Assembly: GCA_965200225.1 (NCBI GenBank)
Contig: CBDATM010000001.1
Coordinates: 1,681,182-1,745,181, forward strand
DNA: 64,000 nt
Direction: 5' to 3'
Source of the DNA: Gammaproteobacteria bacterium
GTDB lineage: Bacteria; Pseudomonadota; Gammaproteobacteria; Steroidobacterales; Foliamicaceae
Notes under the pieces: generated by a model
Told to the model about the DNA's origin: nothing
The model's database searches: none
Seen by the model: only the letters and a program-made list of their open reading frames with translations
Shown: positions 12,241 through 63,418 of the stretch, piece by piece
How positions within the stretch are numbered: position 1 is the first letter of the stretch
Layout: each line of letters begins with the position of its first letter
Program-made: the position numbers and the translations under genes

Positions 12241-12509
12241 GAGCAGCCGCTAAAATAGCTGCCGGAGACGCTCTCGAGTTGTTCCTCGTCGAGGTCGGGC
12301 AGCGGCGGCAGGGCGAGATGGGCGTTTTGCATGTCGCCCTCATGCACATGCACATTCATGCCTTCGGGCACGTCAACGCCGAATTCGCGGCTGATCACGG
12401 CCTTGGGGTCGGCCACCAACTCCGCGCGGAATTCAACGCTCTCGATTGACTTCTCGACGATCTGCTTGTAGAGATTCTCCGTCGTGGTCATCATGCTTTC
12501 GATGCTCAT
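12237..12509 (-). CDS. NHLP-leader RiPP precursor A (core YFSGCS)
   Basis: 90 aa. The NHLP-type leader is SVEFRAELVADPKAVISREFGVDVPEGMNVHVHEGDMQNAHLALPPLPDLDEEQLESVSG, followed by S-YFSGCS-stop. The RBS is AAGGAG, 8 nt before the ATG. The gene is divergent from the cyclodehydratase. Confidence 0.9.
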   Translation of the reverse strand: MSIESMMTTTENLYKQIVEKSIESVEFRAELVADPKAVISREFGVDVPEGMNVHVHEGDMQNAHLALPPLPDLDEEQLESVSGSYFSGCS

Positions 12510-12796
12510 AATTTTTCTCCTTTATTCAGTATGTCAAATAAACAAGGCTCGGATTAACAAGCGCATGTCGCTTGCCAACATGCCTCGCGCCAAACCTCTG
12601 CCGCCTATCATACTCCATTCCACTCCTCCCCCGATGCTTGGCAATATCAACAAGGATCGCGCGGCAACGTGCTGAACGCAGGCGAACGCAGCGGACACTA
12701 TGCCGGGCATGTAATTAGGTGAGATAATCGGGTTGCGAGGAACCAAGGATTGGGGCCAGCAAGCGTCGCGCGCCAGACGGCGTGGAGGAGGAACCG

Positions 12797-15118: not shown

Positions 15119-15132
15119 AGGACGTTCTGCCG

Positions 15133-16515
15133 ATGCCCCTCAGCGACCTGCTTCACGAGCCGTCAATCCATGTTCGCACATGGGGCCGATCGGCGATCAG
15201 CCATTCTCGCTACAGCTCCTCGTTCGTAGGCTCGATCCGGAATAACCCGGTGCGGCTGGGTCCGTACGGCCGCGATTTCGAGGCGGCCCACAACCTGCTT
15301 GTGGCGGGCGCACCGCTTGCCGAACTCCACGCTGCCGTCGTCGAGGGGGGCAGCGTGGAGCGCGCCGCCGAGTACCTGGTTTGGCTGGAGCGGTTCAATC
15401 GGTTCGGGGGCATTGAGTTCCCGCTGGTCGACGAGACGGGCGAACGCGCCGTCATCCTCCCGCAGCAGGACACGTTCGTGCCTACCATGGCGCCGGACGC
15501 TCCGGCCGCCAGTACCTCGCTCGAACGCTTTGCCTTTTTGCGGCGCGGGAACGACGCGTGGCTGCTGGAGTCGCCCCTGGTTGGCGCGCAAGTTCAGCTT
15601 GTCGACCTCGCCGCGCTTGATAGCGATGTCGTCCGTCGCGCGCTTAACGGGATGGGCTTTCTCGATGCGGCCCGGCCGGACAGCGATGCGCGTCGTATTG
15701 CGCTCGCCCAGTGGGAGTTCCACGATCTGCTGTTCCACACCCGTGAGCGGCGCGGGTGGAATCGTGAACCGGCTGGCGCCGCGTTCCCGTTCATCGACCA
15801 GATCGAGCCGCTGCCTGCAGTGCGGCCGGCCTGGCCCGGCAAGCGCATCGCCCTGCCTCGCGCTCCGGATGCCGTCGCGGGGGAGCCCTTCGCGGCGGTG
15901 CTCGCACGGCGTTGCTCCGAGCGGGCGTACGATGCAGCCCACCCGATCACGCTGGCCGATCTCGGCGCGCTGCTCGACCGCGCCGCGCGCATCCGCTCGT
16001 CCATGGCGCATCCGGTACGCGACATCAAGGGTCGAACCGCCGAATTCGAAATCACTTTTCGTCCCTATCCTACGGGCGGCGCGAGCCACGAGCTGGAGAT
16101 CTATCCGATTGTGGACTTTTGCGTCGGACTCAAATCCGGTTGCTATCACTACGATGCGTCCGCCCACGAGTTGGTGCGGATCTCGGAGCGTACCCGGGAG
16201 ATCGACAAACTTCTGCGGTTTGCGCGGAGCGCAACGGCTGATCTGGCCCGGCCGCAGATTCTGCTGGGCGTAACGGCGCGCTTCGCTCGCGTCATGTGGA
16301 AGTACCGGGCGTTCTGTTACGCCATGATCCTGCGCGACACCGGGGCACTCTACCAGACGCTGTATCTCGCAGCCACCGAACTCGGCTTGTCGCCTTGCGC
16401 CATCGGCAGCGGCAACAGCCTCCTGTTCTCGCAAGTCACCGGTCTCGACCCGCTGATCGAGGGCAATGTCGGCGAGTTCATTCTCGGCGGCCGACCTGCA
16501 GCGTCCGCATCCTGA
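15133..16515 (+). CDS. SagB-type FMN-dependent azoline dehydrogenase, copy 1
   Basis: 460 aa. The nitroreductase-fold C-terminal half shows RRCSERAYD...FRPYPTGGASHELEIYP...LYLAATELGLSPCAIGSG. It starts 14 nt after the cyclodehydratase stop. Confidence 0.9.
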   Translation: MPLSDLLHEPSIHVRTWGRSAISHSRYSSSFVGSIRNNPVRLGPYGRDFEAAHNLLVAGAPLAELHAAVVEGGSVERAAEYLVWLERFNRFGGIEFPLVDETGERAVILPQQDTFVPTMAPDAPAASTSLERFAFLRRGNDAWLLESPLVGAQVQLVDLAALDSDVVRRALNGMGFLDAARPDSDARRIALAQWEFHDLLFHTRERRGWNREPAGAAFPFIDQIEPLPAVRPAWPGKRIALPRAPDAVAGEPFAAVLARRCSERAYDAAHPITLADLGALLDRAARIRSSMAHPVRDIKGRTAEFEITFRPYPTGGASHELEIYPIVDFCVGLKSGCYHYDASAHELVRISERTREIDKLLRFARSATADLARPQILLGVTARFARVMWKYRAFCYAMILRDTGALYQTLYLAATELGLSPCAIGSGNSLLFSQVTGLDPLIEGNVGEFILGGRPAASAS

Positions 16516-16604
16516 CACGCGGAACTGCCCGCAGAGCCGCAAGGATTCCAGGTTGCGGGCATTTCTACCTTGCGTTGACACTTCCCCCCGCAACCCGTAC
16601 AAAA

Positions 16605-16641
16605 ATCCGGCGGCCAACGCAAACGCTGCGGGCCGCCGGAT
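16605..16641. terminator. GC-rich hairpin, bidirectional terminator-like (copy 1 of a duplicated element)
   Basis: Perfect 11-bp stem ATCCGGCGGCC (16605-16615) / GGCCGCCGGAT (16631-16641). An A5 run lies on the left and TGATTT on the right. Confidence 0.6.
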
Positions 16642-16666
16642 TGATTTGGGAGTTGAAATAGGCGGA

Positions 16667-16713
16667 TTAGAACGCCGGCCGCCAAGTTGCCCGGAAGTAG
16701 TAGAAGCCGCCAT
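16667..16713 (-). pseudogene. 47-bp relic of the 3' end of the TonB-dependent receptor gene
   Basis: Identical to 21335-21381 (stop codon plus the last 15 codons of the receptor). Homology stops abruptly at 16713/16714. Confidence 0.85.
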
Positions 16714-16875
16714 ATTGTGCCCGGCCTCCGTCACTTCTGGCGGCGGTTAGCGCCGGGCCGCCTGTACGATGTGCCGGTCAGGACGGGGCAGCGCCCCGCC
16801 CCGAACTCGGAGGGCGATCTCAACCCCCTTCCGGTCCTGATCTGAAGGACGGCCTCCCGATAGCCTTCAGCGACC
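16714..16875 (+). pseudogene. 162-bp relic of the cyclodehydratase 3' end plus the sagB 5' end
   Basis: Colinear with 14987-15148. The first ~135 nt have 2 mismatches. The last ~25 nt (intergenic spacer and the first sagB codons) have 6 mismatches. There is no upstream coding context. Confidence 0.85.
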
Positions 16876-16901
16876 GATGAGAAACGCCCTGATTCTGCGA
16901 T

Positions 16902-17177
16902 CTAGCAGGAGCCGCAATGAATATAGCCGCCGGAGACGCTCTCGAGTTGTTCCTCGTCGAGGTCGGGCAGCGGCGGCAGGGCGAGATGGGCGTTTTGCAT
17001 GTCGCCCTCATGCACATGCACATTCATGCCTTCGGGCACGTCAACGCCGAATTCGCGGCTGATCACGGCCTTGGGGTCGGCCACCAACTCCGCGCGGAAT
17101 TCAACGCTCTCGATTGACTTCTCGACGATCTGCTTGTAGAGATTCTCCGTCGTGGTCATCATGCTTTCGATGCTCAT
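16902..17177 (-). CDS. NHLP-leader RiPP precursor B (core YIHCGSC)
   Basis: 91 aa. The leader is identical to precursor A up to LESVSG, followed by G-YIHCGSC-stop. Confidence 0.9.
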   Translation of the reverse strand: MSIESMMTTTENLYKQIVEKSIESVEFRAELVADPKAVISREFGVDVPEGMNVHVHEGDMQNAHLALPPLPDLDEEQLESVSGGYIHCGSC

Positions 17178-17464
17178 AATTTTTCTCCTTTATTCAGTAT
17201 GTCAAATAAACAAGGCTCGGATTAACAAGCGCATGTCGCTTGCCAACATGCCTCGCGCCAAACCTCTGCCGCCTATCATACTCCATTCCACTCCTCCCCC
17301 GATGCTTGGCAATATCAACAAGGATCGCGCGGCAACGTGCTGAACGCAGGCGAACGCAGCGGACACTATGCCGGGCATGTAATTAGGTGAGATAATCGGG
17401 TTGCGAGGAACCAAGGATTGGGGCCAGCAAGCGTCGCGCGCCAGACGGCGTGGAGGAGGAACCG

Positions 17465-19786
17465 ATGCAAAGACAGGTGTCAGAGGCGGGCTGGGGCGCA
17501 GGGCGGGGGATTCTGAAGCGGACCACCGCGGCCGACCGCGGGCTTGTGGAGACGCCGTCGCTGACCCCGCACCTTGATTTCTTTGCGGTTGAAGCAGGGC
17601 GGACGCTGCTGGTTTCCGAGAGCTTCAACACGTTGATCCGCGGGCAGGTCCACCAGGACCTGCTGCCGCTGCTCGACGGCCGCTCCCGGCAGGCCGTGGC
17701 GGCCGCGCTCGCCGGCCGCCACGCGGCCGCGGACGTGGCGTCGGCGCTGGCGTCGCTGGCGTCGCGCGGCTACGTTGTCTCGGGCGACTACGCCATGGAC
17801 CGGGGCCGGGCGGCGTTCTGGTCGGCGCTGGGCGCCTCGCCGCGCTGGGCGGAACAGCGCCTGCGGAATGCGCGGGTGGCCGCGCTCGGCGACGAAGGGC
17901 GCCTTGCCCGGCGCCTCGGGGACCTGGGGGCGCCGGCCGCCGCCGACGGCCGGACTTTGCGGGTCACGGTCTGCGGCGACTATCTGGACAGCTGTCACGC
18001 CGGCCTCAACCGGCGCCGGATCGCGTCCGGCGAGCCGTGGATGCTGCTGGCGCCGGAAGGCGGCCGTCCGCTGTTTGGGCCGGTTTTCCAGCCAGCCGGG
18101 CAAGGACCGTGCTGGGCCTGCCTCGCCCATCGCCTGCGGGGGCATCGCGAAGTTCACGAGTTCGCGCGCCGGATTGCCGGCAGCGGCTGTGTTCCGGCGC
18201 CGAAGGCGTCCGAGCCGGTCGTGGTGGAAGCGGTGTACGATCTGGCCGCCGCCGAGATCGCCAAGTGGCTGGTCTTCGACTCGCTGGCGCCGCTGCACGA
18301 GAACGTCATCTCGCTGGACGTGCTCGGCTTGCAAAGCGCGCGGCATTTTCTGGCGCGCCGCCCGCAGTGCCGCGTTTGCGGGGACGCGGCGCTGTATCGC
18401 CCCGACCGTCCGCCGGCGCCCGTGCGGCTGCGGCCAAGTCCCAAGCGCGCGCGCAGCAGCGGCGGCGCGCGCTCGGTTCCTCCTGAAGCGACCCTGGCGC
18501 GTTACCGGCATCTGATCAGCCCGGTAACCGGCGTGGTTTCCTGGCTTGAGCGGGCGACCGGCGAGACCGATCCGTGGTCGCATGTGTACTACGCCCGGGG
18601 CACCTTGGCGCCGCAGGGCGTCAGCGACCTGGGAATGCTGCGCCGCCTCCTGGGGATGATCAGCGCAGGCAAGGGCAGCACCGCGAGGCAATCCCGGGCG
18701 AGCGCCCTGGGCGAGGCGGTCGAGCGCTGCAGCGGAGTCTTTCATGGCGACGAAATCCGCTGCCGCCGCAGTTACTCGGACTTTGTGGCGGCGGGCGGGT
18801 CCGAAGCCATTCACCCCAACGAAGTGCAGTTGTTCAGCGATCGGCAGTTCGACGAACGCGAACGCCGCAACGCCGCCGCCCGGCAGCACAACCTGATTCC
18901 GGAGCGCCTCGACCCCGACGCGAAAATCGACTGGTCGCCGGTCTGGTCGCTGACGCAGGAGCGCCACCGGTACCTGCCAACGTCGCTCTTGTACTACTAC
19001 ACAGCGTCAGAGAGCGCGTCTCATTTTCAGGCCGATCCCAACGGTTGCGCGGCGGGCAACACCCTGGAAGAGGCGATTCTCCAGGGATTCTTCGAGCTGG
19101 CGGAACGCGACGCCTTCGCGATCTGGTGGTATAACCGGTTGCGCCTGCCCGGCGTGGACCTGGAGAGCTTCGCGGACGACTTCCTGTCGTCGGCAGCGGA
19201 ATACTACCGCGGCCGCCGGCGCAGCCTCTGGGCGCTGGACGCGACCAGCGACCTCGGCATTCCGGTGTTCGTCGCCCTCTCCCGGCGCGCTGATCGCAAA
19301 ACGGCCGGCCACGACGAGATCATGTACGGGATAGGGGCGCACGCCGAACCGCGCATCGCGATTCTGCGCGCCGTATGCGAACTGAATCAGATGATCTCCT
19401 TTTTCGACATCAGCGCCCCCAGGAGCGATGGCCGGTGGCGGCCCTGGGACCGGCCGGTCAAGCTGGCGGACAACCCGTGGCTGACGCCGGCTCCCGGCGT
19501 CGCCCTGCGCGGCCGCTGGGATCACGCCGTTGCCGCCGAAGATGACGCGCGGGAAGACATTGAGCGCTGCCGGGCGCTGGTCGAAGCCAAGGGGCTGGAG
19601 TTGCTGGTCCTCGACCAGACCCGGCCCGACATCGGCATGCCGGTGGCGCGGGTCATTGTGCCCGGCCTCCGTCACTTCTGGCGGCGGTTAGCGCCGGGCC
19701 GCCTGTACGATGTGCCGGTCAGGACGGGGCAGCGCCCCGCCCCGAGCTCGGAGGGCGATCTCAACCCCCTTCCGGTCCTGGTCTGA
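17465..19786 (+). CDS. Fused TOMM cyclodehydratase, copy 2
   Basis: Offset by exactly 4,668 bp from copy 1. The protein is identical except RRRLGMT>RRLLGMI and the patch FGAPASAFQFRADS>YTASESASHFQADP. Confidence 0.9.
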   Translation: MQRQVSEAGWGAGRGILKRTTAADRGLVETPSLTPHLDFFAVEAGRTLLVSESFNTLIRGQVHQDLLPLLDGRSRQAVAAALAGRHAAADVASALASLASRGYVVSGDYAMDRGRAAFWSALGASPRWAEQRLRNARVAALGDEGRLARRLGDLGAPAAADGRTLRVTVCGDYLDSCHAGLNRRRIASGEPWMLLAPEGGRPLFGPVFQPAGQGPCWACLAHRLRGHREVHEFARRIAGSGCVPAPKASEPVVVEAVYDLAAAEIAKWLVFDSLAPLHENVISLDVLGLQSARHFLARRPQCRVCGDAALYRPDRPPAPVRLRPSPKRARSSGGARSVPPEATLARYRHLISPVTGVVSWLERATGETDPWSHVYYARGTLAPQGVSDLGMLRRLLGMISAGKGSTARQSRASALGEAVERCSGVFHGDEIRCRRSYSDFVAAGGSEAIHPNEVQLFSDRQFDERERRNAAARQHNLIPERLDPDAKIDWSPVWSLTQERHRYLPTSLLYYYTASESASHFQADPNGCAAGNTLEEAILQGFFELAERDAFAIWWYNRLRLPGVDLESFADDFLSSAAEYYRGRRRSLWALDATSDLGIPVFVALSRRADRKTAGHDEIMYGIGAHAEPRIAILRAVCELNQMISFFDISAPRSDGRWRPWDRPVKLADNPWLTPAPGVALRGRWDHAVAAEDDAREDIERCRALVEAKGLELLVLDQTRPDIGMPVARVIVPGLRHFWRRLAPGRLYDVPVRTGQRPAPSSEGDLNPLPVLV

Positions 19787-19800
19787 AGGACGTTCTGCCG

Positions 19801-21183
19801 ATGCCCCTCAGCGACCTGCTTCACGAGCCGTCAATCCATGTTCGCACATGGGGCCGATCGGCGATCAGCCATTCTCGCTACAGCTCCTCGTTCGTAGGCT
19901 CGATCCGGAATAACCCGGTGCGGCTGGGTCCGTACGGCCGCGATTTCGAGGCGGCCCACAACCTGCTTGTGGCGGGCGCACCGCTTGCCGAACTCCACGC
20001 TGCCGTCGTCGAGGGGGGCAGCGTGGAGCGCGCCGCCGAGTACCTGGTTTGGCTGGAGCGGTTCAATCGGTTCGGGGGCATTGAGTTCCCGCTGGTCGAC
20101 GAGACGGGCGAACGCGCCGTCATCCTCCCGCAGCAGGACACGTTCGTGCCTACCATGGCGCCGGACGCTCCGGCCGCCAGTACCTCGCTCGAACGCTTTG
20201 CCTTTTTGCGGCGCGGGAACGACGCGTGGCTGCTGGAGTCGCCCCTGGTTGGCGCGCAAGTTCAGCTTGTCGACCTCGCCGCGCTTGATAGCGATGTCGT
20301 CCGTCGCGCGCTTAACGGGATGGGCTTTCTCGATGCGGCCCGGCCGGACAGCGATGCGCGTCGTATTGCGCTCGCCCAGTGGGAGTTCCACGATCTGCTG
20401 TTCCACACCCGTGAGCGGCGCGGGTGGAATCGTGAACCGGCTGGCGCCGCGTTCCCGTTCATCGACCAGATCGAGCCGCTGCCTGCAGTGCGGCCGGCCT
20501 GGCCCGGCAAGCGCATCGCCCTGCCTCGCGCTCCGGATGCCGTCGCGGGGGAGCCCTTCGCGGCGGTGCTCGCACGGCGTTGCTCCGAGCGGGCGTACGA
20601 TGCAGCCCACCCGATCACGCTGGCCGATCTCGGCGCGCTGCTCGACCGCGCCGCGCGCATCCGCTCGTCCATGGCGCATCCGGTACGCGACATCAAGGGT
20701 CGAACCGCCGAATTCGAAATCACTTTTCGTCCCTATCCTACGGGCGGCGCGAGCCACGAGCTGGATATCTATCCGATTGTGGACTTTTGCGTCGGACTCA
20801 AATCCGGTTGCTATCACTACGATGCGTCCGCCCACGAGTTGGTGCGGATCTCGGAGCGTACCCGGGAGATCGACAAACTTCTGCGGTTTGCGCGGAGCGC
20901 AACGGCTGATCTGGCCCGGCCGCAGATTCTGCTGGGCGTAACGGCGCGCTTCGCTCGCGTCATGTGGAAGTACCGGGCGTTCTGTTACGCCATGATCCTG
21001 CGCGACACCGGGGCACTCTACCAGACGCTGTATCTCGCAGCCACCGAACTCGGCTTGTCGCCTTGCGCCATCGGCAGCGGCAACAGCCTCCTGTTCTCGC
21101 AATTCACCGGTCTCGACCCGCTGATCGAGGGCAATGTCGGCGAGTTCATTCTCGGCGGCCGACCTGCAGCGTCCGCATCCTGA
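19801..21183 (+). CDS. SagB-type dehydrogenase, copy 2
   Basis: Offset by 4,668 bp from copy 1. There are two substitutions (ELEIYP>ELDIYP, SQVTGL>SQFTGL). Confidence 0.9.
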   Translation: MPLSDLLHEPSIHVRTWGRSAISHSRYSSSFVGSIRNNPVRLGPYGRDFEAAHNLLVAGAPLAELHAAVVEGGSVERAAEYLVWLERFNRFGGIEFPLVDETGERAVILPQQDTFVPTMAPDAPAASTSLERFAFLRRGNDAWLLESPLVGAQVQLVDLAALDSDVVRRALNGMGFLDAARPDSDARRIALAQWEFHDLLFHTRERRGWNREPAGAAFPFIDQIEPLPAVRPAWPGKRIALPRAPDAVAGEPFAAVLARRCSERAYDAAHPITLADLGALLDRAARIRSSMAHPVRDIKGRTAEFEITFRPYPTGGASHELDIYPIVDFCVGLKSGCYHYDASAHELVRISERTREIDKLLRFARSATADLARPQILLGVTARFARVMWKYRAFCYAMILRDTGALYQTLYLAATELGLSPCAIGSGNSLLFSQFTGLDPLIEGNVGEFILGGRPAASAS

Positions 21184-21272
21184 CACGCGGAACTGCCCGC
21201 AGAGCCGCAAGGATTCCAGGTTGCGGGCATTTCTACCTTGCGTTGACACTTCCCCCCGCAACCCGTACAAAA

Positions 21273-21309
21273 ATCCGGCGGCCAACGCAAACGCTGCGGG
21301 CCGCCGGAT
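21273..21309. terminator. Bidirectional hairpin between sagB-2 and the convergent TonB receptor
   Basis: Same 11-bp stem as 16605-16641. On the minus strand the hairpin is followed by TTTTTGT. Confidence 0.65.
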
Positions 21310-21334
21310 TGATTTGGGAGTTGAAATAGGCGGA

Positions 21335-23899
21335 TTAGAACGCCGGCCGCCAAGTTGCCCGGAAGTAGTAGAAGCCGCCATTAAACCCGAACGGCGATTG
21401 CTCCGGGTAGATCAGACCGGCTACTTCGCCGTTGGGGTTGGTGCTGGGGTACTCGTCAAAGGCGTTTTGCAGGCCCACCAGAAGCGAGAGGGATTCGTTC
21501 ACTTCGTAAGACACCTCCAGATCGACCAGAACGCTCGGATCCGGCTCGAACGCTACCGAACCGTCGTTGGTGGGAGCATCGTAGTAGGCCCCGTAATACC
21601 GCGCACGCGCCATGAAGCGCCACGGCCCCATCAAGTGCGTCCAGGTTCCCGTCAGGCGGAAATCCGGGCGCCCTTCTTCGATTTGCCGCCGACGGTTTTC
21701 CGACGTGAAGTCGGGGTTGTACTTGGTGAGATCAATATTCGACCAGTTACCCACCACGGTGATGTTGGAAGAACCGCTACCCAGGTCAAACGGCCAGCTG
21801 GCGACCAGATCGATGCCGGAGGCCTCCACGGTCTGCAGATTCGAGAAGAATCGCACCGAGGTAAAGCTGCTTGCGTCGGACACGCCGGCAGCCAGCAATG
21901 TCTGAATGTCGGATTCGGTAAGAGTGAAGCGACTGGTGAAGGAGATCCGGTCCTCAATCTCGATGTTGTAATAGTCCAGCGTTACGTTCAGGTCACCGGT
22001 AGTAAACACTAGGCCCAGGGTTACGTTCACCGACTCCTCGGGGGTTAGGGGCTGGGCACCCTTCTGCTGCGCCACCGGATTGGTGGGCGGCAAGGTGGCG
22101 ATGTCGGCCAAGGCCCCCATGTTGAACTCCGTGGTTACATTGCGCAGGTTCGCCTGCCCCGAAGTGGGAACCCGAAAGCCGGTGCTCACTGCGCCGCGTA
22201 CCGCTACCGCGTCGGAAATCTGGAAGCGCGCCGCCAGCTTTCCATCCAGGGTGTCGCCGAACTCCGAATAATTCTCGAATCGCACGGCGGCGCCCAGCAG
22301 CAACTGCTCGCTTACGTTCGACTCAAGGTCAACATAGGCGGCGTAAGCGCTGATCGTGCTCTCGCCGGCATCGCCCGGCTGGAATCCGGGAAATCCGTTG
22401 GAGCCAACGCCAAAGCCCTGCGAGGCCAGACCGTATTCGAGGTTGGGATCGATATAGAAAGAGTTGGGATCGCCGTTTTCGATCTTGAAGGTTTCATCAC
22501 GAGCTTCCAGTCCCATGGCCACATTCACCGGTTCCGACATGCCGATATCCAGCGGTTTGGACAGATCAATGTTGACCACCCGGTCGATTTCCGTATAGGC
22601 GCCGGCGTTGTAGTAGACGGGAATGTCATTGCGCAGCGCCAGCAATTGCGGGTTGATCGTGTTGTAGATGTAGAACTGGGCATAGCTGCGCCCGGCTGTC
22701 ACGCTGAGGTCATAGAACCAACCGTTGTCCATTTCGCCGCGCAGCCCGCCCGCCGCTGCCAGATCATGAATATAGCCGCCGAACTGAGGAGTGAATCCGC
22801 CGGGGAATTTTTCGATCAGCGAATAGCAGTTCGGGTCGGTGCGAATGGCAGCCAGAGCGGCGGCATCCGGCACGTTGTTCACGATCCGCACCACCGGGCA
22901 GTTGCCGGTTCCGTCGCCGGAGAGATCCGCCACCTTGACCGTGGACGTTCCGTCGGGCAACACCGGCCCCTTGAACACGCCGCCTCGAGTGTGCGGATTC
23001 CGAAAGTAGAAGCCGCCTTCCACCTGGCGCTTGGACCAGTTTCCGAAAGCGTAGAACTCCTGACTGTTGCTCATATCCGCTCCGAGATTGGCCATGAACT
23101 TGAAATCGTCGGAAATTTCCGGAGCGCCCCAGATCTGCGCCGGAACGCGCACATGGGTATTGCCTGCGTCAATCAGCGCTTGAGCATCTGCGCGCTGCGC
23201 GCTGCGGCTGGTGGGGTCGGACTCCTTCCATTCGAAGCTCAGGTTGGCGAAGCCGCGATCGGTAAGCGGCAGGCCCAGGTTGCCGGCCAGTGTCAATGCG
23301 TCTCCGTCTCCCTCGAAGTGCGTGCCCCACTTGGCGTCCAGGACTGCGCCTTCGGCATCCTCCTTCAATACGAAATTCATGATGCCGGCAATGGCGTCGG
23401 AGCCGTATTGCGCCGATGCGCCGTCGCGCAGCACCTCAAGCCGGTCCAGGGCGATGGCGGGAATGGCGGACAGGTCAGGGCCTTGCGAACCGCCGGATAT
23501 GCCTGCGCCCAGCAGCGCGATAACCGCCGCACGGTGCCGCCGCTTTCCATTCACCAGCACCAGCGTGGCGTCCGGCGGGAGCGAGCGAAGAGTGGCCGGA
23601 CGCACCAGCGTGGCCGCGTCGCTGATCGGTTCCTGGCTGACGCCATAGGAAGGAACCAGCGCGGAAATCAGGTTGTCCATGTCGGAATCGCCATGGGCGA
23701 GGAACTCGTCCCCGCCGATCACGTCCACCGGCACCGGCGAGTCGGCCGCCGAGCGGTCGCGGCGCCTGGAGCCTACAACCACGATTTCTTCCAGGGCTTC
23801 GGCGGATTGCTGGCTCTGGGAAAGCGCAGGCGCGGCTGGGATTGTTGCGAGAACAAGAACAATCGGCAGGGTGGCTAATCTATTTATATTGAAAAACAT
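21335..23899 (-). CDS. TonB-dependent outer-membrane receptor
   Basis: 854 aa with a signal peptide (MFFNINRLATLPIVLVLATIPAAPALS). The plug domain shows EEIVVVGSRRR...DSPVPVDVI...LEVLRDGASAQYGSDAIAGIMNFVLK. The C-terminus is YFRATWRPAF, ending in a terminal Phe. Confidence 0.9.
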   Translation of the reverse strand: MFFNINRLATLPIVLVLATIPAAPALSQSQQSAEALEEIVVVGSRRRDRSAADSPVPVDVIGGDEFLAHGDSDMDNLISALVPSYGVSQEPISDAATLVRPATLRSLPPDATLVLVNGKRRHRAAVIALLGAGISGGSQGPDLSAIPAIALDRLEVLRDGASAQYGSDAIAGIMNFVLKEDAEGAVLDAKWGTHFEGDGDALTLAGNLGLPLTDRGFANLSFEWKESDPTSRSAQRADAQALIDAGNTHVRVPAQIWGAPEISDDFKFMANLGADMSNSQEFYAFGNWSKRQVEGGFYFRNPHTRGGVFKGPVLPDGTSTVKVADLSGDGTGNCPVVRIVNNVPDAAALAAIRTDPNCYSLIEKFPGGFTPQFGGYIHDLAAAGGLRGEMDNGWFYDLSVTAGRSYAQFYIYNTINPQLLALRNDIPVYYNAGAYTEIDRVVNIDLSKPLDIGMSEPVNVAMGLEARDETFKIENGDPNSFYIDPNLEYGLASQGFGVGSNGFPGFQPGDAGESTISAYAAYVDLESNVSEQLLLGAAVRFENYSEFGDTLDGKLAARFQISDAVAVRGAVSTGFRVPTSGQANLRNVTTEFNMGALADIATLPPTNPVAQQKGAQPLTPEESVNVTLGLVFTTGDLNVTLDYYNIEIEDRISFTSRFTLTESDIQTLLAAGVSDASSFTSVRFFSNLQTVEASGIDLVASWPFDLGSGSSNITVVGNWSNIDLTKYNPDFTSENRRRQIEEGRPDFRLTGTWTHLMGPWRFMARARYYGAYYDAPTNDGSVAFEPDPSVLVDLEVSYEVNESLSLLVGLQNAFDEYPSTNPNGEVAGLIYPEQSPFGFNGGFYYFRATWRPAF

Positions 23900-53247: not shown

Positions 53248-53973
53248 TCAGTGCGGCGGGAACTCGTCGTAGGTCCTGCCGTTCAGCGTGCGGCCGTTTT
53301 TGTGCTTGCGAACTCCGCCCCATTGCTTGAAGAAAAAAGGCACGCCGTCGCGTCGGCATTGTTCCAGGATTCTCAGCACCCAGCTTTCCCGCATGGGCCG
53401 AGCGCGGGGGCCGCTTTCTCCGCCCACGATGGCCCAATCAATGCCTCGAAGGTCGATTTCGCCAAGGTCTTCCAGAAGAGGTTCAATCGACAGGAAGCGC
53501 ACAGCAGCAGGCGTATCGCGCAAGGCTTCCAGGCGCGGGAGCCCCTGGTGCTGATTTTCCACGCTCACGCCGAACCACGCATTCGGCAGTTCCCCCATCC
53601 ACGAAAGCTTTCCGGTGAGTAACTCGCGCATGCGCTGGTGCCGTTTGGTCAGCACCTGATAGGTGTGGTGCGGAGTGCCTTGCATTACGCGCCCCACCTT
53701 GCCGATGTAGGCGTGCGGCACATCGGGATGAAACAGGTCGCTCATGGAGTTCACGAACACCCGGCGCGGCTTCCTCCAGCGATAAGGTTCTTCCAGCTTT
53801 GATGGGACGAGGAGAAGATCGAAGCCCTGTTCGAACGGGTGTCCCGCAACGCCCCGGAATCGCTCGGCGAACCGGTGGGCGTAGCAAAGCGCGCATCCTG
53901 CGCTGATCTTGGTGCAGCCTCGGACGGGATTCCAGGTTGCGTCCGTCCACTCGATTCTGCTGCCGTCAGCCAT
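53248..53973 (-). CDS. Phage Gp37/Gp68 family (DUF5131) three-Cys-motif protein
   Basis: 241 aa. Starts MADGSRIEWTDATWNPVRGCTKISAGCALCYA and contains FVNSMSDLFH...FLSIEPLLEDLG...DWAIVGGESGP...FFFKQWGG. Confidence 0.8.
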   Translation of the reverse strand: MADGSRIEWTDATWNPVRGCTKISAGCALCYAHRFAERFRGVAGHPFEQGFDLLLVPSKLEEPYRWRKPRRVFVNSMSDLFHPDVPHAYIGKVGRVMQGTPHHTYQVLTKRHQRMRELLTGKLSWMGELPNAWFGVSVENQHQGLPRLEALRDTPAAVRFLSIEPLLEDLGEIDLRGIDWAIVGGESGPRARPMRESWVLRILEQCRRDGVPFFFKQWGGVRKHKNGRTLNGRTYDEFPPH

Positions 53974-54086
53974 GCGCGTCCTCCTGGGCCAGTGGCGACT
54001 GCGCGCAGAATATGCCAGGAGCGCGATGGTCAGGAGTCATCACGGCACGTGAGGAAATCAGGCGGGTCAGGCAAGCCCTGCGTTCG

Positions 54087-54476
54087 TTATAACTTGATCA
54101 GCAGGGTAACAAGAAAGACGATCTGGGCAATGAGATCCCCGGTCCCGAACACTATGATGTTGCTCTGCAGTCGGTCAAGAGTGGCACCAAGCCGAGGGAA
54201 GCCTTTATCCAACCGATCGCAGCGCTCATGAAAGTACTTCCGATACCGATCGAAACATGCACCGACCTGCCGCCCAACTTGGCCGGAATGACTTCCGGTG
54301 GATTTCTCAAGACGATTGAGTCGTTCGCCGGTAGACTTCTCAAGCCGTTCAATATCCGCCCTGGTTGCGAGCTGCTTGCCTTGTTGATGAATGGTCCGGG
54401 CTATGACTTCGGCGGGTTTGCGCTCGAGACCGGCGGCTTCGATATCGTGCGATGTCAGCAAGATATCGAGTTCCAT
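54087..54476 (-). CDS. DUF1640-like tail-anchored coiled-coil protein, paralog 1
   Basis: 129 aa. MELDILLTSHDIEAAGLERKPAEVIARTIHQQGKQLATRADIERLEKSTGERLNRLEKSTG..., ending in the C-terminal hydrophobic anchor IIVFGTGDLIAQIVFLVTLLIKL. Confidence 0.7.
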   Translation of the reverse strand: MELDILLTSHDIEAAGLERKPAEVIARTIHQQGKQLATRADIERLEKSTGERLNRLEKSTGSHSGQVGRQVGACFDRYRKYFHERCDRLDKGFPRLGATLDRLQSNIIVFGTGDLIAQIVFLVTLLIKL

Positions 54477-54551
54477 GGCAACCTCCCTATAACGTTGTCA
54501 CCTGTAATGCGGCAGCAGCAGGATTGCCACTGCCATATGCTGCGCATTATA
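54477..54551 (-). promoter_or_regulatory. Conserved leader of DUF1640 paralog 1 (TATAAT block, 10-bp hairpin, RBS)
   Basis: The minus-sense reading is TATAAT GCGCAGCATAT GGCAGTGGCA-ATCC-TGCTGCTGCC GCATTACAGGTGACAACGTTATAGGGAGGTTGCC ATG. The hairpin arms are at 54511-54520 / 54525-54534 and the TATAAT at 54546-54551. Confidence 0.55.
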
Positions 54552-55179: not shown

Positions 55180-56556
55180 GTGAGACTGGCCCCCAAACCC
55201 TTGGAGATAGGCGAAGAGGCTGGTTTTAAGGATACGGACCTGTTTGGTTACAAGGAGTTTGGCAAGCGGCTCGCCAACTTGGTTGAATCCCTGGAAGGAT
55301 CTTCGGTTGTTGCTTTTGACGGGCCTTGGGGAAGCGGCAAAACCACTTTCATTCTTCAGTGGGCAGGGTTGCTGCGAAAAAGAGGGGCCGCAGTGATTCG
55401 CTTCGATGCGTTCGAGAACGACCACCAGCATGACGCCTTCTTTTCACTGGCAGGCGAGTTTTTTGCATACGCTGACCAATCGGCAAACATAGGCGATGAG
55501 AGGAAAAAGGCCTTTGTCGAAAAAGCAGCGGCGGTCGGGAAGACTATAGGACTTGCAGGAATCCAGGCTGGAATCAATTGGGCCTCGGGAGGATTGCTGA
55601 ATCCAGACCTTGCAAAAATCACCGAGGATATCCGCAAGGCCTCACTTGACCGGATTAAAGAGTGAACTAAGGGGGCCGAGAAAGAGCGTAAGCTGGTAAG
55701 GGATTTTCGAGATAGTCTTTCGACCCTCGCGCAGGCCACGCAATCTCACGGAAGCCAATCTGAGGATGGGCAACAAAATGTGAGCAAGCCTCTCGTTTTC
55801 ATTATTGACGAGTTGGACCGGTGCAAACCGACCTTCGCCTTGAATCTGATTGAGCGCATCAAGCACCTGTTTTCCGTGGATGGGATCTGCTTCGTTCTGG
55901 TGGCCAATTTCAAGGCGCTGGAAGAGTCCATTTCAAGGACATACGGCCTGCATGACGCAAGAACTTGCCTGGAAAAATTCTGGCAGATTCGCGTTTGCTT
56001 GCCGGATGCACAGTCTTCGCATTTTTCTGACACCAACCGTGCTCGTTATATTGGGTATCTTCGCGAACATCTGAGTGAAATGCTCGGCCCATCTCCTTTC
56101 GAGACGCTGGAAGAATTGTCTAGAATCCAGGGTTGTTCTCTCCGAACCATGGAGCGAATATTTCTAAATCTCGCACTTGCTTACAACTCGGTTAACGTAC
56201 AAAAAAGAGAGTCGCGCTATCTCACGGAAATTGCTGTCGGGTTATGCGTGATGAAAACAATCGATCCAGAGCTGTACGAAAGGGCACGAACAGGCGCTAT
56301 TACACTCGCCGAAGCACGGAGTTTCATGAAATTTGAATCTTGGCGGGGGAGTCGGCAAGAGGATGTGGAGAATCTCTGGTTCTGTGCCGCGGCTACCGAC
56401 GACGAACTTTCTGCAGAGCCAGAACGTCTGGAGCGCTTCAAAACCGGGACCGAGACGTATCAAGACGGCGTAATCAGCAGAGACATTGAACAGCGCAGAC
56501 GTGATTTAATCCCGAAGACCTGTGGGCACATTGACGAGTTTTCCCAATACGATTAA
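55180..56556 (+). pseudogene. KAP-family P-loop NTPase interrupted by one in-frame TGA (55663-55665)
   Basis: The GTG start is preceded by AAAGGAG. Walker A is FDGPWGSGKTTF. The stop falls after ...LDRIKE, and the same frame continues TKGAEKERKLV...SKPLVFIIDELDRCKP (Walker B) to 56556. ORFs 55180..55665 and 55780..56556 share one reading frame. Confidence 0.7.
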
Positions 56557-56638: not shown

Positions 56639-56932
56639 TTACTTGGAGATATGCAGCGTGATCTGCAGATCGCCGTCGAGCGCTGCGATCATCTTCATAA
56701 GGCGATCCAGCGTGATCCGTCCAAGCTCGGCATTTCGGATGCGTGAAAAGTCCTCTGCGGCGAAGCGGGTCCGGGCAACTGCTTTCGGCACCGAAAGCCC
56801 GCGGTCGTCCAGCGTCGCGATGATCCGCGCGGCAAGGACCGCCTTGGCCTGTTTCAGGTCTGCTTCGGGATCACCCATGTCGCGAAACACATTGCCGCTT
56901 CCTTCCAGCAGTTCGGAATCGTTCTCGTTCAT
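56639..56932 (-). CDS. XRE-family HTH antitoxin (HigA-2-like), orphan
   Basis: 97 aa. GSGNVFRDMGDPEADLKQAKAVLAARIIATLDDRGLSVPKAVARTRFAAEDFSRIRN...LDRLMKMIAALDGDLQITL matches the GNVFxDLG-type antitoxin pattern. Confidence 0.65.
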   Translation of the reverse strand: MNENDSELLEGSGNVFRDMGDPEADLKQAKAVLAARIIATLDDRGLSVPKAVARTRFAAEDFSRIRNAELGRITLDRLMKMIAALDGDLQITLHISK

Positions 56933-56970
56933 TGCAACAACTCCCGTTTCAATCGCGCCAACCGGCTTGC
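56929..56970 (-). pseudogene. 13-codon C-terminal stub of the cognate RelE/HigB-type toxin
   Basis: The minus-sense reading ...ASRLARLKRELLQ-TGA overlaps the antitoxin ATG (ATGA). Upstream of 56970 the sequence switches to the conserved 3' tail of DUF1640 unit 2. Confidence 0.5.
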
Positions 56971-57014
56971 GAGGAAATCAGGCGGGCCAGGTGGGCAGGC
57001 AAGCCCCGCGTTCG

Positions 57015-57404
57015 TTATAACTTGATCAGCAGAGTAAAGAGAAAGAGGATCTGGGCAATGAGTATTCCGGTCCCGAACAGTATGATGTTGGTCTGCAGTC
57101 GGTCAAGAGTGGCATCAAGCCGAGCGAAGCTTTTGTCCAACTGATCGGAGCGCTCACAAAAGCTCTTCTCAAACCGATCGAAACACGCACCGATCTGTCG
57201 TCCAACTTGGTCGGAATGACCTCCGGTGGATCTCTCAAGACGATGTAGTCGTTCGCCGGTAGACTTCTCAAGTCGTTCAATATCCGCCCCGGTTGCAAGC
57301 TGCTTGCGTTGTTCATGAATGGCCCGGGCTATGACTTCGGCGGGTTTGCGCTCGAGACCGGCGGCTTCAATGTCGTGCGATGTCTGCCAGATATCGAGTT
57401 CCAT
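57015..57404 (-). CDS. DUF1640-like tail-anchored coiled-coil protein, paralog 2
   Basis: 129 aa. MELDIWQTSHDIEAAGLERKPAEVIARAIHEQRKQLATGADIERLEKSTGERLHRLERSTG...IILFGTGILIAQILFLFTLLIKL. Confidence 0.7.
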   Translation of the reverse strand: MELDIWQTSHDIEAAGLERKPAEVIARAIHEQRKQLATGADIERLEKSTGERLHRLERSTGGHSDQVGRQIGACFDRFEKSFCERSDQLDKSFARLDATLDRLQTNIILFGTGILIAQILFLFTLLIKL

Positions 57405-57479
57405 GGCAACCTCCCTATAACGTTGTCACCTGTAATCCGGCAACAGCAGGATCGCTACCGCCGTGTGCTGTGGATTATA
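57405..57479 (-). promoter_or_regulatory. Conserved leader of DUF1640 paralog 2
   Basis: Same architecture as paralog 1. The hairpin is GGCGGTAGCG-ATCC-TGCTGTTGCC (arms 57439-57448 / 57453-57462) and the TATAAT is at 57474-57479. Confidence 0.55.
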
Positions 57480-57494: not shown

Positions 57495-57791
57495 GAGGCG
57501 CTTGGGGACTGGCGAGGTGGTTGTTTGACGCAGGATCAGGCGGCGGCCTTGCTGGGGGTGAGCGCGCGGACGTTTCGGCGGTGGATGGTTCGGTATGGCG
57601 AGGACGGCATGGAGGGTTTGCGGGATCGCCGGGTGTCGCGGGCCTCGCACCGCGCGGCGCCGGTGGACGAGGTGATGCGGATGGTCAACCGGTATCGCAC
57701 GCCCCACGAGGGCTGGAACATTCGCCACTACTATTCCTGGTATCGGCGCGAGCGGGAAATTGAAATATGCAGGCCGTTGATTCAAAATTGA
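57495..57791 (+). mobile_element. N-terminal HTH fragment of an ISNCY-type (integrase-fold) transposase
   Basis: LTQDQAAALLGVSARTFRRWMVRYGEDGMEGLRDRRVSRASHRAAPVDEVMRMVNRYRTPHEGWNIRHYYSWYRRE is followed by a stop. There is no DDE catalytic domain and I saw no terminal repeats. Confidence 0.5.
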
Positions 57792-57816
57792 ACAGTCGCA
57801 TCCGGGAGCATGTCCA

Positions 57817-58920: not shown

Positions 58921-58956
58921 CAAAATCACCCCGCTTAATTTGTCACGCCCGGCCCC

Positions 58957-59085
58957 AAAGTATTTCCGATACTGATCGAAACACGCACCGATCTGTCGTC
59001 CAACTTGGTCGGAATGACCTCCGGTGGATTTCTCAAGACGATGTAGTCGTTCGCCGGTCGACTTCTCAAGTCGTTCAATATCTGC
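58957..59085 (-). pseudogene. Internal fragment (~43 codons) of a fourth DUF1640-like gene
   Basis: It encodes ...ADIERLEKSTGERLHRLEKSTGGHSDQVGRQIGACFDQYRKYF. It lacks both the start and the membrane anchor. The sequence is a mosaic of paralog-2-like and paralog-1-like stretches, and it abuts the stop of the AAA ATPase gene. Confidence 0.75.
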
Positions 59086-59090
59086 GCGGG

Positions 59091-60263
59091 TTATTCGCAT
59101 GGAGTGCGCAGGTCGATTTCGTGGATTCTGCGTAATGGAAGTGCGGTGATGTGGTCGGTTAGCGGATACTCTCGCTCTCCCGGATAGACCACCCAGAGAT
59201 GCTCGAGTCTCAGGTCGTCCATGACGATGTGCATGGACCGGGTAGTGCGGGGCGCGTCCGTGCATTTGAATTCGAATCCCCAACGCCGGCCGCGCCTGTG
59301 CAGCATGAGATCCAGTTCGGCGCCGCGCTGCGTTCGGTAGAACCAGGCGTCGCGCTCCCCGTGGGCGATCAGCGTTTGCTCCAGCGAGAATCCTTCCCAA
59401 CTGGCTCCGTAGCGGGGATGCAGGGGCAGCTCCTGCGCGGACCGGATGCCGAGCAGAAAGTGGAGGATGCCGCTGTCTCTGATGTACGTCTTGGGGGACT
59501 TGACCAGGCGTTTGCCCAGATTCTCGAACCACGGGGGCAGGATTCGCGCCATGAAGGTGCCAGCCAGGAGGTCGCGATAATGGTTCACGGCGGTTTCGCT
59601 CACGTCCATGGATCGAGCCAGCTCCGAGGCGTTCCAGGTTTGTCCGTGAAAGTGGGCCAGCATTCTCCAGAAGTGCGCCAGGGCTGTCGGGGAAACGCGC
59701 GATCCCAGTCCGGGAATGTCTCTTTCGAGAAACGTGCGGGAAAACCCGTCCATCCACCTTGTCCACGCGTTGCCGGACGGTGCCAGGAACGCGCGCGGAA
59801 AGCCGCCGCGCATCCACAACTGCTGCTGATTGCCGACCTCCGTTTCAGCGATGGAAAAACCGCCCGCTTCCACAAACTGAATTCTTCCCGCCAGCGTTTC
59901 CGACACGCCCCGGATCCGATCCAACGATGCGCTTCCCAGCAGAAGAAACACGGCCTTTCGTTGCGGATCGTCGCAAATCGGCCGCAAGAGCTCGAACAGT
60001 TGAGGCAACCGTTGCACTTCGTCCACCACCACCAGCCCCTCGCTGGCTCGCAACACCGTTTCCGGGATCGTGGAAAGGGCTTCCCGGGCGGCGGCTGTTT
60101 CGAGGTCGTAGAGCGTGGACGGCCCTTCCCAGGAAGCCATCACCTGTTGCGCGAGCGTCGTCTTGCCCACCTGTCGAGCGCCCAGGATCGCTACCACCGG
60201 CGCTTCATCAAGACCTCGCCGTATCGCTTCCAAAAGCCTGGGACGTTGAACAAGCCGCTTCAT
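59091..60263 (-). CDS. AAA+ ATPase with C-terminal DUF4143 domain
   Basis: 390 aa. Walker A is ILGARQVGKTTL and Walker B is LVVVDEVQRLP. The DUF4143-type region shows YIRDSGILHFLLG...RGAELDLML. Confidence 0.8.
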   Translation of the reverse strand: MKRLVQRPRLLEAIRRGLDEAPVVAILGARQVGKTTLAQQVMASWEGPSTLYDLETAAAREALSTIPETVLRASEGLVVVDEVQRLPQLFELLRPICDDPQRKAVFLLLGSASLDRIRGVSETLAGRIQFVEAGGFSIAETEVGNQQQLWMRGGFPRAFLAPSGNAWTRWMDGFSRTFLERDIPGLGSRVSPTALAHFWRMLAHFHGQTWNASELARSMDVSETAVNHYRDLLAGTFMARILPPWFENLGKRLVKSPKTYIRDSGILHFLLGIRSAQELPLHPRYGASWEGFSLEQTLIAHGERDAWFYRTQRGAELDLMLHRRGRRWGFEFKCTDAPRTTRSMHIVMDDLRLEHLWVVYPGEREYPLTDHITALPLRRIHEIDLRTPCE

Positions 60264-60456
60264 AATTGTCGTATATTCTACTTCTTGAAATGAATATTCA
60301 ACAATTATTTCGGTATATTATTTCGGTGCATTCTCGCTGAAAGGTGCATTCTGGCTGAAATATGAAAAACGACGCGAAAAGGTGCCATTACCCTGGGGCC
60401 GGCGCGAAATTTAATAAAACTTGAATCTTGGCGCGGGCCAGAAAGCCCTATGTTCG

Positions 60457-61056
60457 TTACGTATTCATGTTCATCAGCAGGGTAACCACCGCGGCGATCA
60501 GAGTAAGGATGAACGCGCTCCCGAATCCTATGATGGTCATAATCGTCTGGTTGAACCGGGTCTCAAGCCGGGCGTCAAGGCGTTCGACGGATTTCTCAAG
60601 CCGTCCGATATCCTGGTCAACCCGATCGAAGCGCTCTCCGGTCTCCCGGCGAAGTTGTTCGACATCCGCCTTGGTTGCTTTGCCAAGCTGTTCGACATCC
60701 GCCTTGGTTGCTTTGCCAAGCTGTTCGAGGTCCGCCTTGGTTGCTTTGCCGAGCTGTTCGAGGTCCGCCTTGGTTGCTTTGCCGAGCTGTTCGACATCCG
60801 CCTTGGTTGCTTTGCCGAGCTGTTCGACATCCGCCTTGGTTGCTTTGCCGAGCTGTTCGACATCCGCCTTGGTTGCTTTGCCGAGCTGTTCGACATCCGC
60901 CTTGGTTGCTTTGCCCAGTTGTTCGAGGTCCGCCTTGGTGGCGAGCGGTCTGCGGTGTTCGTGAATGGCCCGGGATATGGCTTCCGCGGGTTTGCGCTCC
61001 AGGCCGGCGGCTTCGATGTCGTGCGCCGTCTGCAAGGTATCTTGATCCAGTTCCAT
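60457..61056 (-). CDS. DUF1640-like tail-anchored coiled-coil protein, paralog 3, with expanded 11-residue repeats
   Basis: The start is at the internal Met 61056 (MELDQDTLQTAHDIEAAGLERKPAEAISRAIHEHRRPLAT). Nine KAD(V/L)EQLGKAT repeats follow. The C-terminal anchor is IMTIIGFGSAFILTLIAAVVTLLM. Confidence 0.75.
   Translation of the reverse strand: MELDQDTLQTAHDIEAAGLERKPAEAISRAIHEHRRPLATKADLEQLGKATKADVEQLGKATKADVEQLGKATKADVEQLGKATKADVEQLGKATKADLEQLGKATKADLEQLGKATKADVEQLGKATKADVEQLRRETGERFDRVDQDIGRLEKSVERLDARLETRFNQTIMTIIGFGSAFILTLIAAVVTLLMNMNT
60657..60942. repeat. 33-bp tandem repeat, 8 full units plus a partial one (coding)
   Basis: The unit GTTCGA(C/G)(A/G)TCCGCCTTGGTTGCTTTGCC(A/G)AGCT starts at 60657, 60690, 60723, 60756, 60789, 60822, 60855 and 60888, with a partial unit at 60921. 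Confidence 0.9.
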
Positions 61057-61128
61057 GGCAACCTCCTTATGTTGTCGCCTGTAATCTGGCAGCCGCAGGC
61101 TTGCTGCTGCCCAATGCCGCGCATTATA
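61057..61128 (-). promoter_or_regulatory. Conserved leader of DUF1640 paralog 3
   Basis: The hairpin is GGCAGCAGCA-AGCC-TGCGGCTGCC (arms 61088-61097 / 61102-61111, one mismatch). The TATAAT is at 61123-61128 and the RBS is AAGGAGG. Confidence 0.5.
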
Positions 61129-61214
61129 GCGGCCTCGCAAAATCCTGGCACTCTATAATTCAACGCAAGTTCCCACATATTTGAACGCAGGCTCCAACGG
61201 TTACGGTACCCAGT

Positions 61215-63060: not shown

Positions 63061-63138
63061 GAGGAGGGTGCTGGGTAGAGTGGCTGGGTAGAGTCGCTGA
63101 AAAAGGGCAGGAGCCGTCAATGGAGCGTTCGGGGACGG

Positions 63139-63222
63139 TGCCGGGAGCGAGACTCGAACTCGCACGGGTTTCACCCCGCCGGATTTTGAGTCCGGTGCGT
63201 CTACCAATTCCGCCATCCCGGC
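63139..63222 (-). tRNA. tRNA-Leu (anticodon CAA)
   Basis: The reverse complement reads GCCGGGA-TG-GCGGAATTGGTAGACGC-A-CCGGA-CTCAAAA-TCCGG-(long variable arm CGGGGTGAAACCCGTG)-CGAGT... with T-arm GCGAG-TTCGAGT-CTCGC and acceptor 3' strand TCCCGGC-A. CCA is not encoded. Confidence 0.85.
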
Positions 63223-63281: not shown

Positions 63282-63418
63282 GCAACCAGCGTCTGGCGCA
63301 ACAGGCTTCGGGCGCAACCAGCTTTCGGTGCAGCAAGCGTCTGGCGCACCAAGCTTCGGGTGCAACGAGTTCTGGCACAACAGGCGTCTGGCGCAACGGG
63401 CTTCTGGTGTAATGTGGC
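63282..63418. repeat. Degenerate 16-bp tandem array (about 8.5 units; alternating units give a 32-bp super-period)
   Basis: The units are GCAACCAGCGTCTGGC / GCAACAGGCTTCGGGC / GCAACCAGCTTTCGGT / GCAGCAAGCGTCTGGC / GCACCAAGCTTCGGGT / GCAACGAGTTCTGGCA / CAACAGGCGTCTGGC / GCAACGGGCTTCTGGT. Confidence 0.85.

Follow-up and report, generated by a model that had tools for sequence, protein, structure and literature searches.

A stable stem-loop, here called SL1, lies between the promoter and the ribosome-binding site (RBS) of each of the three DUF1640-like paralogs in the 64,000-nucleotide stretch of gammaproteobacterial DNA that was analysed (the window). The comparison of leaders leans toward selection on the structure of the sense-strand RNA, and we consider it somewhat probable that SL1 has a selected role of some kind at the RNA level. 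SL1 appears to be a lineage-specific 5'-proximal stem-loop whose most likely function, which we propose tentatively, is to protect the 5' end of the mRNA in the manner of ompA.

The sense strand of all three paralogs is the minus strand of the window. Paralog 1 (54087-54476) and paralog 2 (57015-57404) each encode 129 aa, with 81% identity between them. The product of paralog 1 is identical to protein P0001 and consists of an N-terminal head, a coiled coil and a C-terminal membrane helix. Paralog 3 (60457-61056) encodes 199 aa and includes 8.6 copies of a 33-nt (11-aa) repeat. This tandem repeat (60656-60939, minus strand; 96% identity) encodes ATKADVEQLGK. ATKAD-type repeats are present in varying number in homologues elsewhere, so the coiled coil apparently varies in length by repeat gain and loss. 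The match of copy 3 to PF07798 scored 27.2 bits against a cut-off of 33.5, and copies 1 and 2 gave no match. The paralogs are below the strict PF07798 threshold, and the label "DUF1640-like" is a fair one on sequence grounds because most of the 399 proteins retrieved by a family profile search contain PF07798.

The order of elements is the same in every copy: a conserved block, TATAAT, a spacer, SL1, another conserved block, GGAGG, GTTGCC and ATG. Perfect TATAAT (-10) boxes are located at 54546-54551 for copy 1, where TTTAGCGAGGGCGC is conserved directly 5', at 57474-57479 for copy 2 and at 61123-61128 for copy 3 (all on the minus strand). The block conserved 5' of TATAAT in all three copies is (A)TTTWGCGARGSCSC. 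The promoter scan found no recognisable -35 box for copies 1 and 2; copy 3 has a -35-like GTGCCA (61146-61151, minus strand) 17 nt 5' of TATAAT, with a promoter score of 10/12. A sigma-54 promoter was rejected on sequence grounds: in copy 1 the GG and GC are spaced one position wrong, and copies 2 and 3 do not have the motif. The 11-nt spacer between TATAAT and SL1 is variable and ends in an invariant GCA plus 3 nt. When the three leaders of the window were aligned with the one known from another organism, G-C-A at nt 6-8 past TATAAT was invariant and the rest of the spacer variable. On the basis of the hexamer spacing and this invariant GCA in a variable spacer, transcription is predicted to start at the A of GCA (54538, 57466 and 61115 for copies 1, 2 and 3), which is 3-5 nt 5' of SL1. 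SL1 is 24 nt long and is followed by 6 nt and then by the conserved ATTACAGGYGACAAC. The start codons (54476, 57404 and 61056) are about 38 nt 3' of it, and GGAGG precedes each ATG. Similarity between the copies begins about 25 nt 5' of TATAAT and stops about 20 nt 3' of the stop codon, except that copies 1 and 2 remain similar for about 60 nt further at the 3' end. Because these bounds enclose the promoter, the leader and the gene, all three belong to the duplicated unit.

SL1 of copy 1 (54511-54534, minus strand; leader of 54087-54476) reads GGCAGUGGCA-AUCC-UGCUGCUGCC and forms 10 bp, or 11 with a closing U-G pair. Copy 2 (57439-57462, minus strand; leader of 57015-57404) reads GGCGGUAGCG-AUCC-UGCUGUUGCC and forms 10 bp, four of them G-U, or 11 bp with a closing C-G pair. 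Copy 3 (61088-61111, minus strand; leader of 60457-61056) reads GGCAGCAGCA-AGCC-UGCGGCUGCC and has an A.G mismatch at position 7. An earlier note on this DNA had described a 10-bp stem with a 4-nt loop between TATAAT and the RBS in all three copies, and the sequence is exactly as claimed. Its sense-strand pairing counts of 10/10, 10/10 and 9/10 for copies 1, 2 and 3 were reproduced; on the antisense strand we counted 8/10, 6/10 and 9/10, respectively. The free energy was -15.6 kcal/mol for the sense strand vs. -10.3 kcal/mol for the antisense strand in copy 1, and -10.1 vs. -5.6 kcal/mol in copy 2. The strand specificity that the note had assigned to the structure thus holds in both energy and pairing for copies 1 and 2 and fails for copy 3, in which both strands give -14.2 kcal/mol and equal pairing. 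SL1 is a stable stem-loop of the sense strand and part of the minimum-energy fold of the leader in copies 1-3, with mean pair probabilities of 0.98 in copy 1, 0.85-0.92 in copy 2 and 0.87 in copy 3. The bases of its loop vary (AUCC, AUCC and AGCC) and are mostly deleted in the homologue from the other organism, on contig L002. The 3' flank of SL1 is GCAUUACAGG, GGAUUACAGG or AGAUUACAGG in the three copies and has no U-tract.

A second hairpin, SL2, adjoins the start codon. In copy 1 (54477-54502, minus strand) its stem is GGUGAC/GUUGCC, the GGGAGG Shine-Dalgarno sequence is in the loop, and the 3' arm adjoins AUG. SL2 is also found in the fold of the leader of copy 2 (57405-57430, minus strand) and in copy 3 (61057-61079, minus strand), where the stem is GGCGAC/GUUGCC and the loop is shorter by 3 nt. 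All 6 pairs of SL2 are formed in all three copies (100% paired), and the sole variation is the change of U-G to C-G in copy 3. When leaders were cut at the predicted start, SL1 and SL2 folded together in 4/4 known sequences (z = -2.1, -1.6, -2.9 and -0.8). Minimum-energy folds in long context were unstable for this GC-rich RNA and not decisive.

Five of the ten SL1 pairs vary among the three window copies. These SL1 changes are always on one side; in the count over the three copies, 6 pairs vary on one side only and 0 on both, and a column-shuffle control on these three copies did not separate the structure from chance. The word "compensatory", which the earlier note had used for the stem changes, is too strong, since all of them are one-sided, to or from G-U; what is observed is a set of pair-preserving transitions. 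Over the four known leaders, parsimony gives about 10 substitutions in the 20 stem columns, 8 transitions and 2 transversions; the transition:transversion ratio in the adjacent coding block is roughly 1:1. Each of the 8 stem transitions leaves the sense strand with a standard pair or a G-U pair, and transitions of the kind that would favour the antisense strand are absent. The two pair-breaking events are the A.G in copy 3 and a U.C in the outside homologue. In total, 38 of 40 cells are paired on the sense strand vs. 31 of 40 on the antisense strand; these four-sequence counts come from a hand alignment, as MAFFT misaligns the L002 hairpin. We compared this outcome (at least 38/40 paired cells) with a neutral simulation having the same number of substitutions, the same tree and a perfect ancestor. 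The simulation gave P = 0.004, 0.015, 0.042 and 0.16 at transition fractions of 0.5, 0.67, 0.8 and 1.0, respectively.

Between copies 1 and 2 the stem differs at 4/20 positions, a divergence at least as high as that of third codon positions (3/29), which indicates a stem sequence that evolves freely yet stays paired. The stem and loop of SL1 drift in sequence and the flanking leader blocks are conserved in sequence; this drift against conserved flanks fits a constraint on structure only. An origin of the minus-strand G-U excess in replication skew was rejected, since a skew scan found GC and AT skew in the region to be flat or slightly opposite. With G-U pairs counted, the 64 kb contains about 30 distinct hairpins of 10 bp or more per strand, or about 1 per 2 kb per strand. 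A single hairpin of SL1 quality is unremarkable, and the signal is that it has kept its position while the copies diverged. The stem consists of a GCA/UGC trinucleotide repeat, and pairing is still 67-77% when it is slid by 3 columns. The four leaders come from two organisms, the window copies are paralogs rather than independent samples, and SL1 was selected post hoc from 64 kb; with these limits, the leaders give suggestive, not conclusive, evidence of a pairing constraint on the sense strand. The earlier note had read the hairpin as a selected RNA element and not a DNA operator. The sense-strand pairing bias agrees with that reading, the evidence for it is thin at four sequences, and an operator becomes only less likely.

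We built a covariance model from the three window leaders, which recovered them at E < 1e-17, with the next sense-independent hit at E = 0.33. The covariance model, the hairpin census and a motif scan found no copies of SL1 in the window beyond the three leaders. Outside the window (including 14 loci), the covariance model found the same leaders only, on Logan contigs L005 and L006 and on L002/L003. The same genome has at least three further paralogs outside the window (P0003, P0004 and P0005). According to protein searches, the MELD..HDIEAAGLERKPAE subfamily to which they belong is very rare: apart from P0001 and P0003-P0005 of this genome, the only member found was P0002, from one other organism. 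The P0002 locus is the JGI metagenome contig L002, whose leader is the same as that of L003, a contig of the gammaproteobacterial MAG PNGco_C_bin10. P0002 and the protein of copy 2 have 45% identity, and in the conserved block 34-52% of third codon positions differ between P0002 and the window copies. The L002 leader retains TATAAT (with an extended -10 TG), GCA, CAGGCGACAAC and AGGAGGTTGCCATGGAAC; TATAAT, the CAGGYGACAAC block and GGAGGUUGCCAUGGAAC are shared despite only 45% protein identity. The arms of its SL1 are recognisable (GGCGGCGUCA / UGCCGCUGCC). Position 8 is U.C, and a deletion of three loop bases together with a G-to-U change removes the top three pairs, leaving 6-7 bp possible in either of two registers. 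The L002 hairpin is the best fold of 30-40 nt of nascent RNA; the full leader is predicted to prefer other folds, and the 64-nt leader cut at the predicted start has SL1 plus SL2 as its minimum-energy fold. The earlier note had held that non-compensatory changes in additional homologues would speak against a selected element. The outside homologue keeps the arms and has lost the top of the stem, and gives neither clear support nor refutation.

Scans of genome contigs and of metagenome contigs with N-terminal peptide patterns yielded one locus each (L003 and L004). The peptide pattern scan of viral contigs gave 0 matches, and BLASTN searches of plasmids and phages with the leader and N-terminus found nothing. 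L004, which is AT-rich and only distantly related, has no leader. In three DUF1640-like subfamilies, represented by L004 (325-345), L009/L010 (L009 2488-2503) and L011 (2487-2503), ATG lies 6-7 nt past a -10 box (TATAAT or TATACT), and from this spacing their mRNAs are apparently leaderless. In the P0006/P0015 subfamily (L007 and L008), a promoter of the TTGACG/TATAGT type is followed by about 60 nt of leader, in which there are a GC-rich hairpin of 8 bp and GGAGG. It thus resembles the SL1 leader in having a promoter, a leader of this length, a hairpin and GGAGG; its hairpin is unlike SL1 in sequence and position, with an uncompensated mismatch in one of two members. Because the more distant DUF1640-like genes either seem to have no leader or have one of another kind, the SL1 leader is, as far as these sequences indicate, a lineage-specific addition and not a trait of the whole DUF1640-like family.

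In the proposed model, each paralog has its own putative promoter, formed by the perfect TATAAT and the conserved block just 5' of it. Transcription would start at the conserved CA 7-8 nt past TATAAT, so that the RNA would begin with 3-5 unpaired bases followed by SL1. Eight bases past SL1, SL2 would hold the Shine-Dalgarno sequence in its loop and pair the bases right before AUG. SL1 would be constrained for pairing rather than for sequence, and sense-strand pairing would be kept through G-U intermediates. We infer that the hairpin forms in vivo and stabilises the message: it may make the RNA less accessible to the pyrophosphohydrolase and to the RNase E pathway that depends on the 5' end, which would give the mRNA a longer life. 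The lack of a U-tract, the unconserved loop, the drifting stem and the conserved flanks suggest that the role of SL1 is a generic one. Among the points against a protector, other DUF1640-like genes manage without any leader, and 3-5 unpaired 5' bases might make protection incomplete; this number is said to have been placed at the upper edge of protection in E. coli by Emory et al. in 1992.

Known stabilisers offer a close comparison. Like those of E. coli ompA and papA and of Bacillus aprE and ermC, SL1 is stable and a few bases from the predicted 5' end, has no U-tract, and is free to vary in the sequence of stem and loop. Protective 5' stem-loops are described as an established mechanism, and the ompA 5' UTR as combining a 5' hairpin with a second element at the ribosome-binding site, in the review PMC3997798 (citing Emory 1992, Bouvet and Belasco 1992 and Arnold 1998). 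The leaders of the paralogs resemble this two-element arrangement, since an RBS element (SL2) follows SL1, and they too precede a membrane-protein gene. They differ in length (about 65 nt vs. 133 nt in ompA). SL1 is unlike the ompA-type stabilisers in that it has no sequence homology to them, and its start site and effect on half-life are predictions here.

The same pairing evidence is also compatible with a regulatory role. SL1 could be a protein or sRNA binding site common to the paralogs, or a switch in which pairing of its 3' arm with CAGG alters access to the Shine-Dalgarno sequence and AUG. AUUACAGGYGACAAC, between and within the hairpins, is conserved in sequence in both organisms, CCUG at the junction of the SL1 loop and 3' arm is complementary to CAGG at the foot of SL2, and the predicted equilibrium fold of L002 pairs the 3' arm of SL1 with the 5' arm of SL2. 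In the window copies, however, this alternative pairing is only 4-5 bp, and SL1 there has a probability of 0.85-0.98. A-N-GGA in the SL2 loop and AUGGA at the start codon are reminiscent of CsrA-type targets. A specific binding site would not usually drift as this stem does, the loop is unconserved in the window and mostly deleted in the homologue, and no candidate partner was identified; we judge a regulatory SL1 to be rather unlikely. SL1 may also be without function, a palindromic CAG/CTG-type stretch inherited with the duplicated unit, whose G-U pattern arose by chance under transition-biased mutation. The hairpin does lie inside the duplicated block, whose ends are about 25 nt 5' of TATAAT and about 20 nt 3' of the stop codon, and it was singled out post hoc from a stretch in which comparable hairpins occur at about 1 per 2 kb per strand. 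Double-sided changes number 0, copy 3 has a mismatch, the homologue is without the top of the stem, and under transitions only the pairing is not unexpected (P = 0.16). At the transition fraction of about 0.5 that is seen in the neighbouring coding sequence, however, P is about 0.004, 8/8 transitions go in the sense-favouring direction, and arms and position are kept in a homologue with 34-52% third-codon difference. We consider a functionless SL1 improbable.

The inverted repeat may instead act in double-stranded DNA, as an operator at about +5 to +28 for a dimeric repressor of all the paralogs. Its site just 3' of the -10 box is typical for repressors, each half-site has 0-3 mismatches to the consensus GGCAGCAGCA, and the outer GGC...GCC is invariant. 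Nevertheless, variation is concentrated in one arm and preserves RNA pairing on one strand only, and the half-sites of copy 2 would differ at 4/10 positions in double-stranded DNA. The three neighbourhoods have no common regulator gene and no similar palindrome lies 5' of other island genes, and we find an operator quite unlikely. We also considered a short upstream reading frame, (M/T)AVAILLLP(H/D)YR-stop, which overlaps SL1 and might be coding now or have been so recently. Read in the AVAILLLP frame, the four stem positions that distinguish copy 1 from copy 2 alter no amino acid, and in copy 1 the frame is headed by ATG (54527-54529). The 3-nt periodicity of the changes follows as well from the GCA-repeat stem, in which only A-to-G keeps pairing. 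The start is absent in copy 2 (ACG), and the TTG of copy 3 is out of frame, one base upstream; there is no Shine-Dalgarno sequence 5' of the frame. In copy 3 three residues of the frame are replaced (V to A, I to S and L to R) and the frame continues into the main gene; in the homologue 1 nt is inserted and 3 nt are deleted. Coding by this frame is accordingly an extremely improbable source of the stem pattern.

The leader was also compared with other classes of element. Like Rfam cis-regulatory leader motifs, it is a small structured piece of 5' UTR that is conserved in front of a single gene family. Against all 4227 Rfam families no leader reached a gathering score, and the best leader E-values (1.3 and 2) were to unrelated families; in the Rfam scan of the window only two tRNAs passed the threshold. 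An intrinsic terminator or attenuator was rejected, as no U-tract follows the stem and the terminator scan did not report these sites. A REP-like dispersed repeat was rejected too, since within the window SL1 occurs only in these leaders. SL1 shares with REP elements and integron attC an imperfect palindrome with strand-specific pairing; unlike them, it is undispersed and lies between promoter and RBS, and there is no recombinase in the annotated neighbourhood.

The stretch that contains the paralogs lies between uvrB and a dsbC-like gene, has a GC content of 0.55-0.58 vs. 0.60-0.68 elsewhere in the window, and is rich in defence and toxin-antitoxin genes. In each case the next gene 3' of the paralog on its strand is of a defence type or antitoxin-like (53248-54476, 56639-57404 and 59091-61056, minus strand). 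Copy 1 precedes a DUF5131 gene and its partner (PDC-M30/M41) with a gap of 113 nt, copy 2 an HTH_37 antitoxin-like gene with a gap of 82 nt, and copy 3 an AAA/DUF4143 ATPase (PDC-S01) with a gap of 193 nt. The terminator scan found no intrinsic terminator in the three gaps between paralog and partner. The promoter of the leader may also feed these downstream genes, and on this possibility a broader hypothesis is based. In this hypothesis, which we regard as very unlikely, SL1-SL2 would be a cis-regulatory RNA of at least six paralogs in a symbiont-type gammaproteobacterium, with one trans-acting factor, a protein or a small RNA, switching the family on or off; the leader could then be a control point of the defence island, in which the coiled-coil gene comes first.

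Several other features of the region were noted. The distant DUF1640-like genes of L009 and L011 adjoin SNase, PIN, HEPN/MNT-type and HigB genes. The window also has a fourth DUF1640-like copy (58933-59092, minus strand), which is truncated to residues ~38-90 and has 79% identity to copy 1. It starts exactly at the end of the AAA/DUF4143 gene, is without leader or N-terminus, and looks like a remnant of rearrangement. A KAP-family P-loop NTPase (PDC-S20-like) is split in two frames (55180-55665 and 55780-56556, plus strand) and is probably a pseudogene or frameshifted. The frame at 57500-57800 (plus strand), just 5' of paralog 2, resembled by eye the N-terminus of a helix-turn-helix transposase (…LGVSARTFRRWMVRYGEDGMEGL…) and is probably a fragment of an insertion sequence. 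A degenerate 16-nt tandem repeat (63282-63407, about 8 copies, 71% matches) lies beside tRNA-Leu(CAA) (63137-63222). Elsewhere in the window there is a large direct duplication (about 12100-21350) with a spacing of 4668 nt, in which 12241-12540 and 16909-17208 have 98% identity; it includes a 162-nt unit at 14987, 16714 and 19655, and several long GC-rich hairpins are repeated.

SL1 probably belongs to an ordinary class of bacterial leader elements and is so far known from two organisms only. If real, it would be one more lineage-restricted 5' UTR stem-loop and would leave the understanding of mRNA leaders unchanged. It would matter more widely only if the paralogs and the downstream defence genes are coordinated through the leader. 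If real, it would also help to annotate promoters and leaders in this uncharacterised family of DUF1640-like membrane coiled-coil genes, which multiply in a defence and toxin-antitoxin island.
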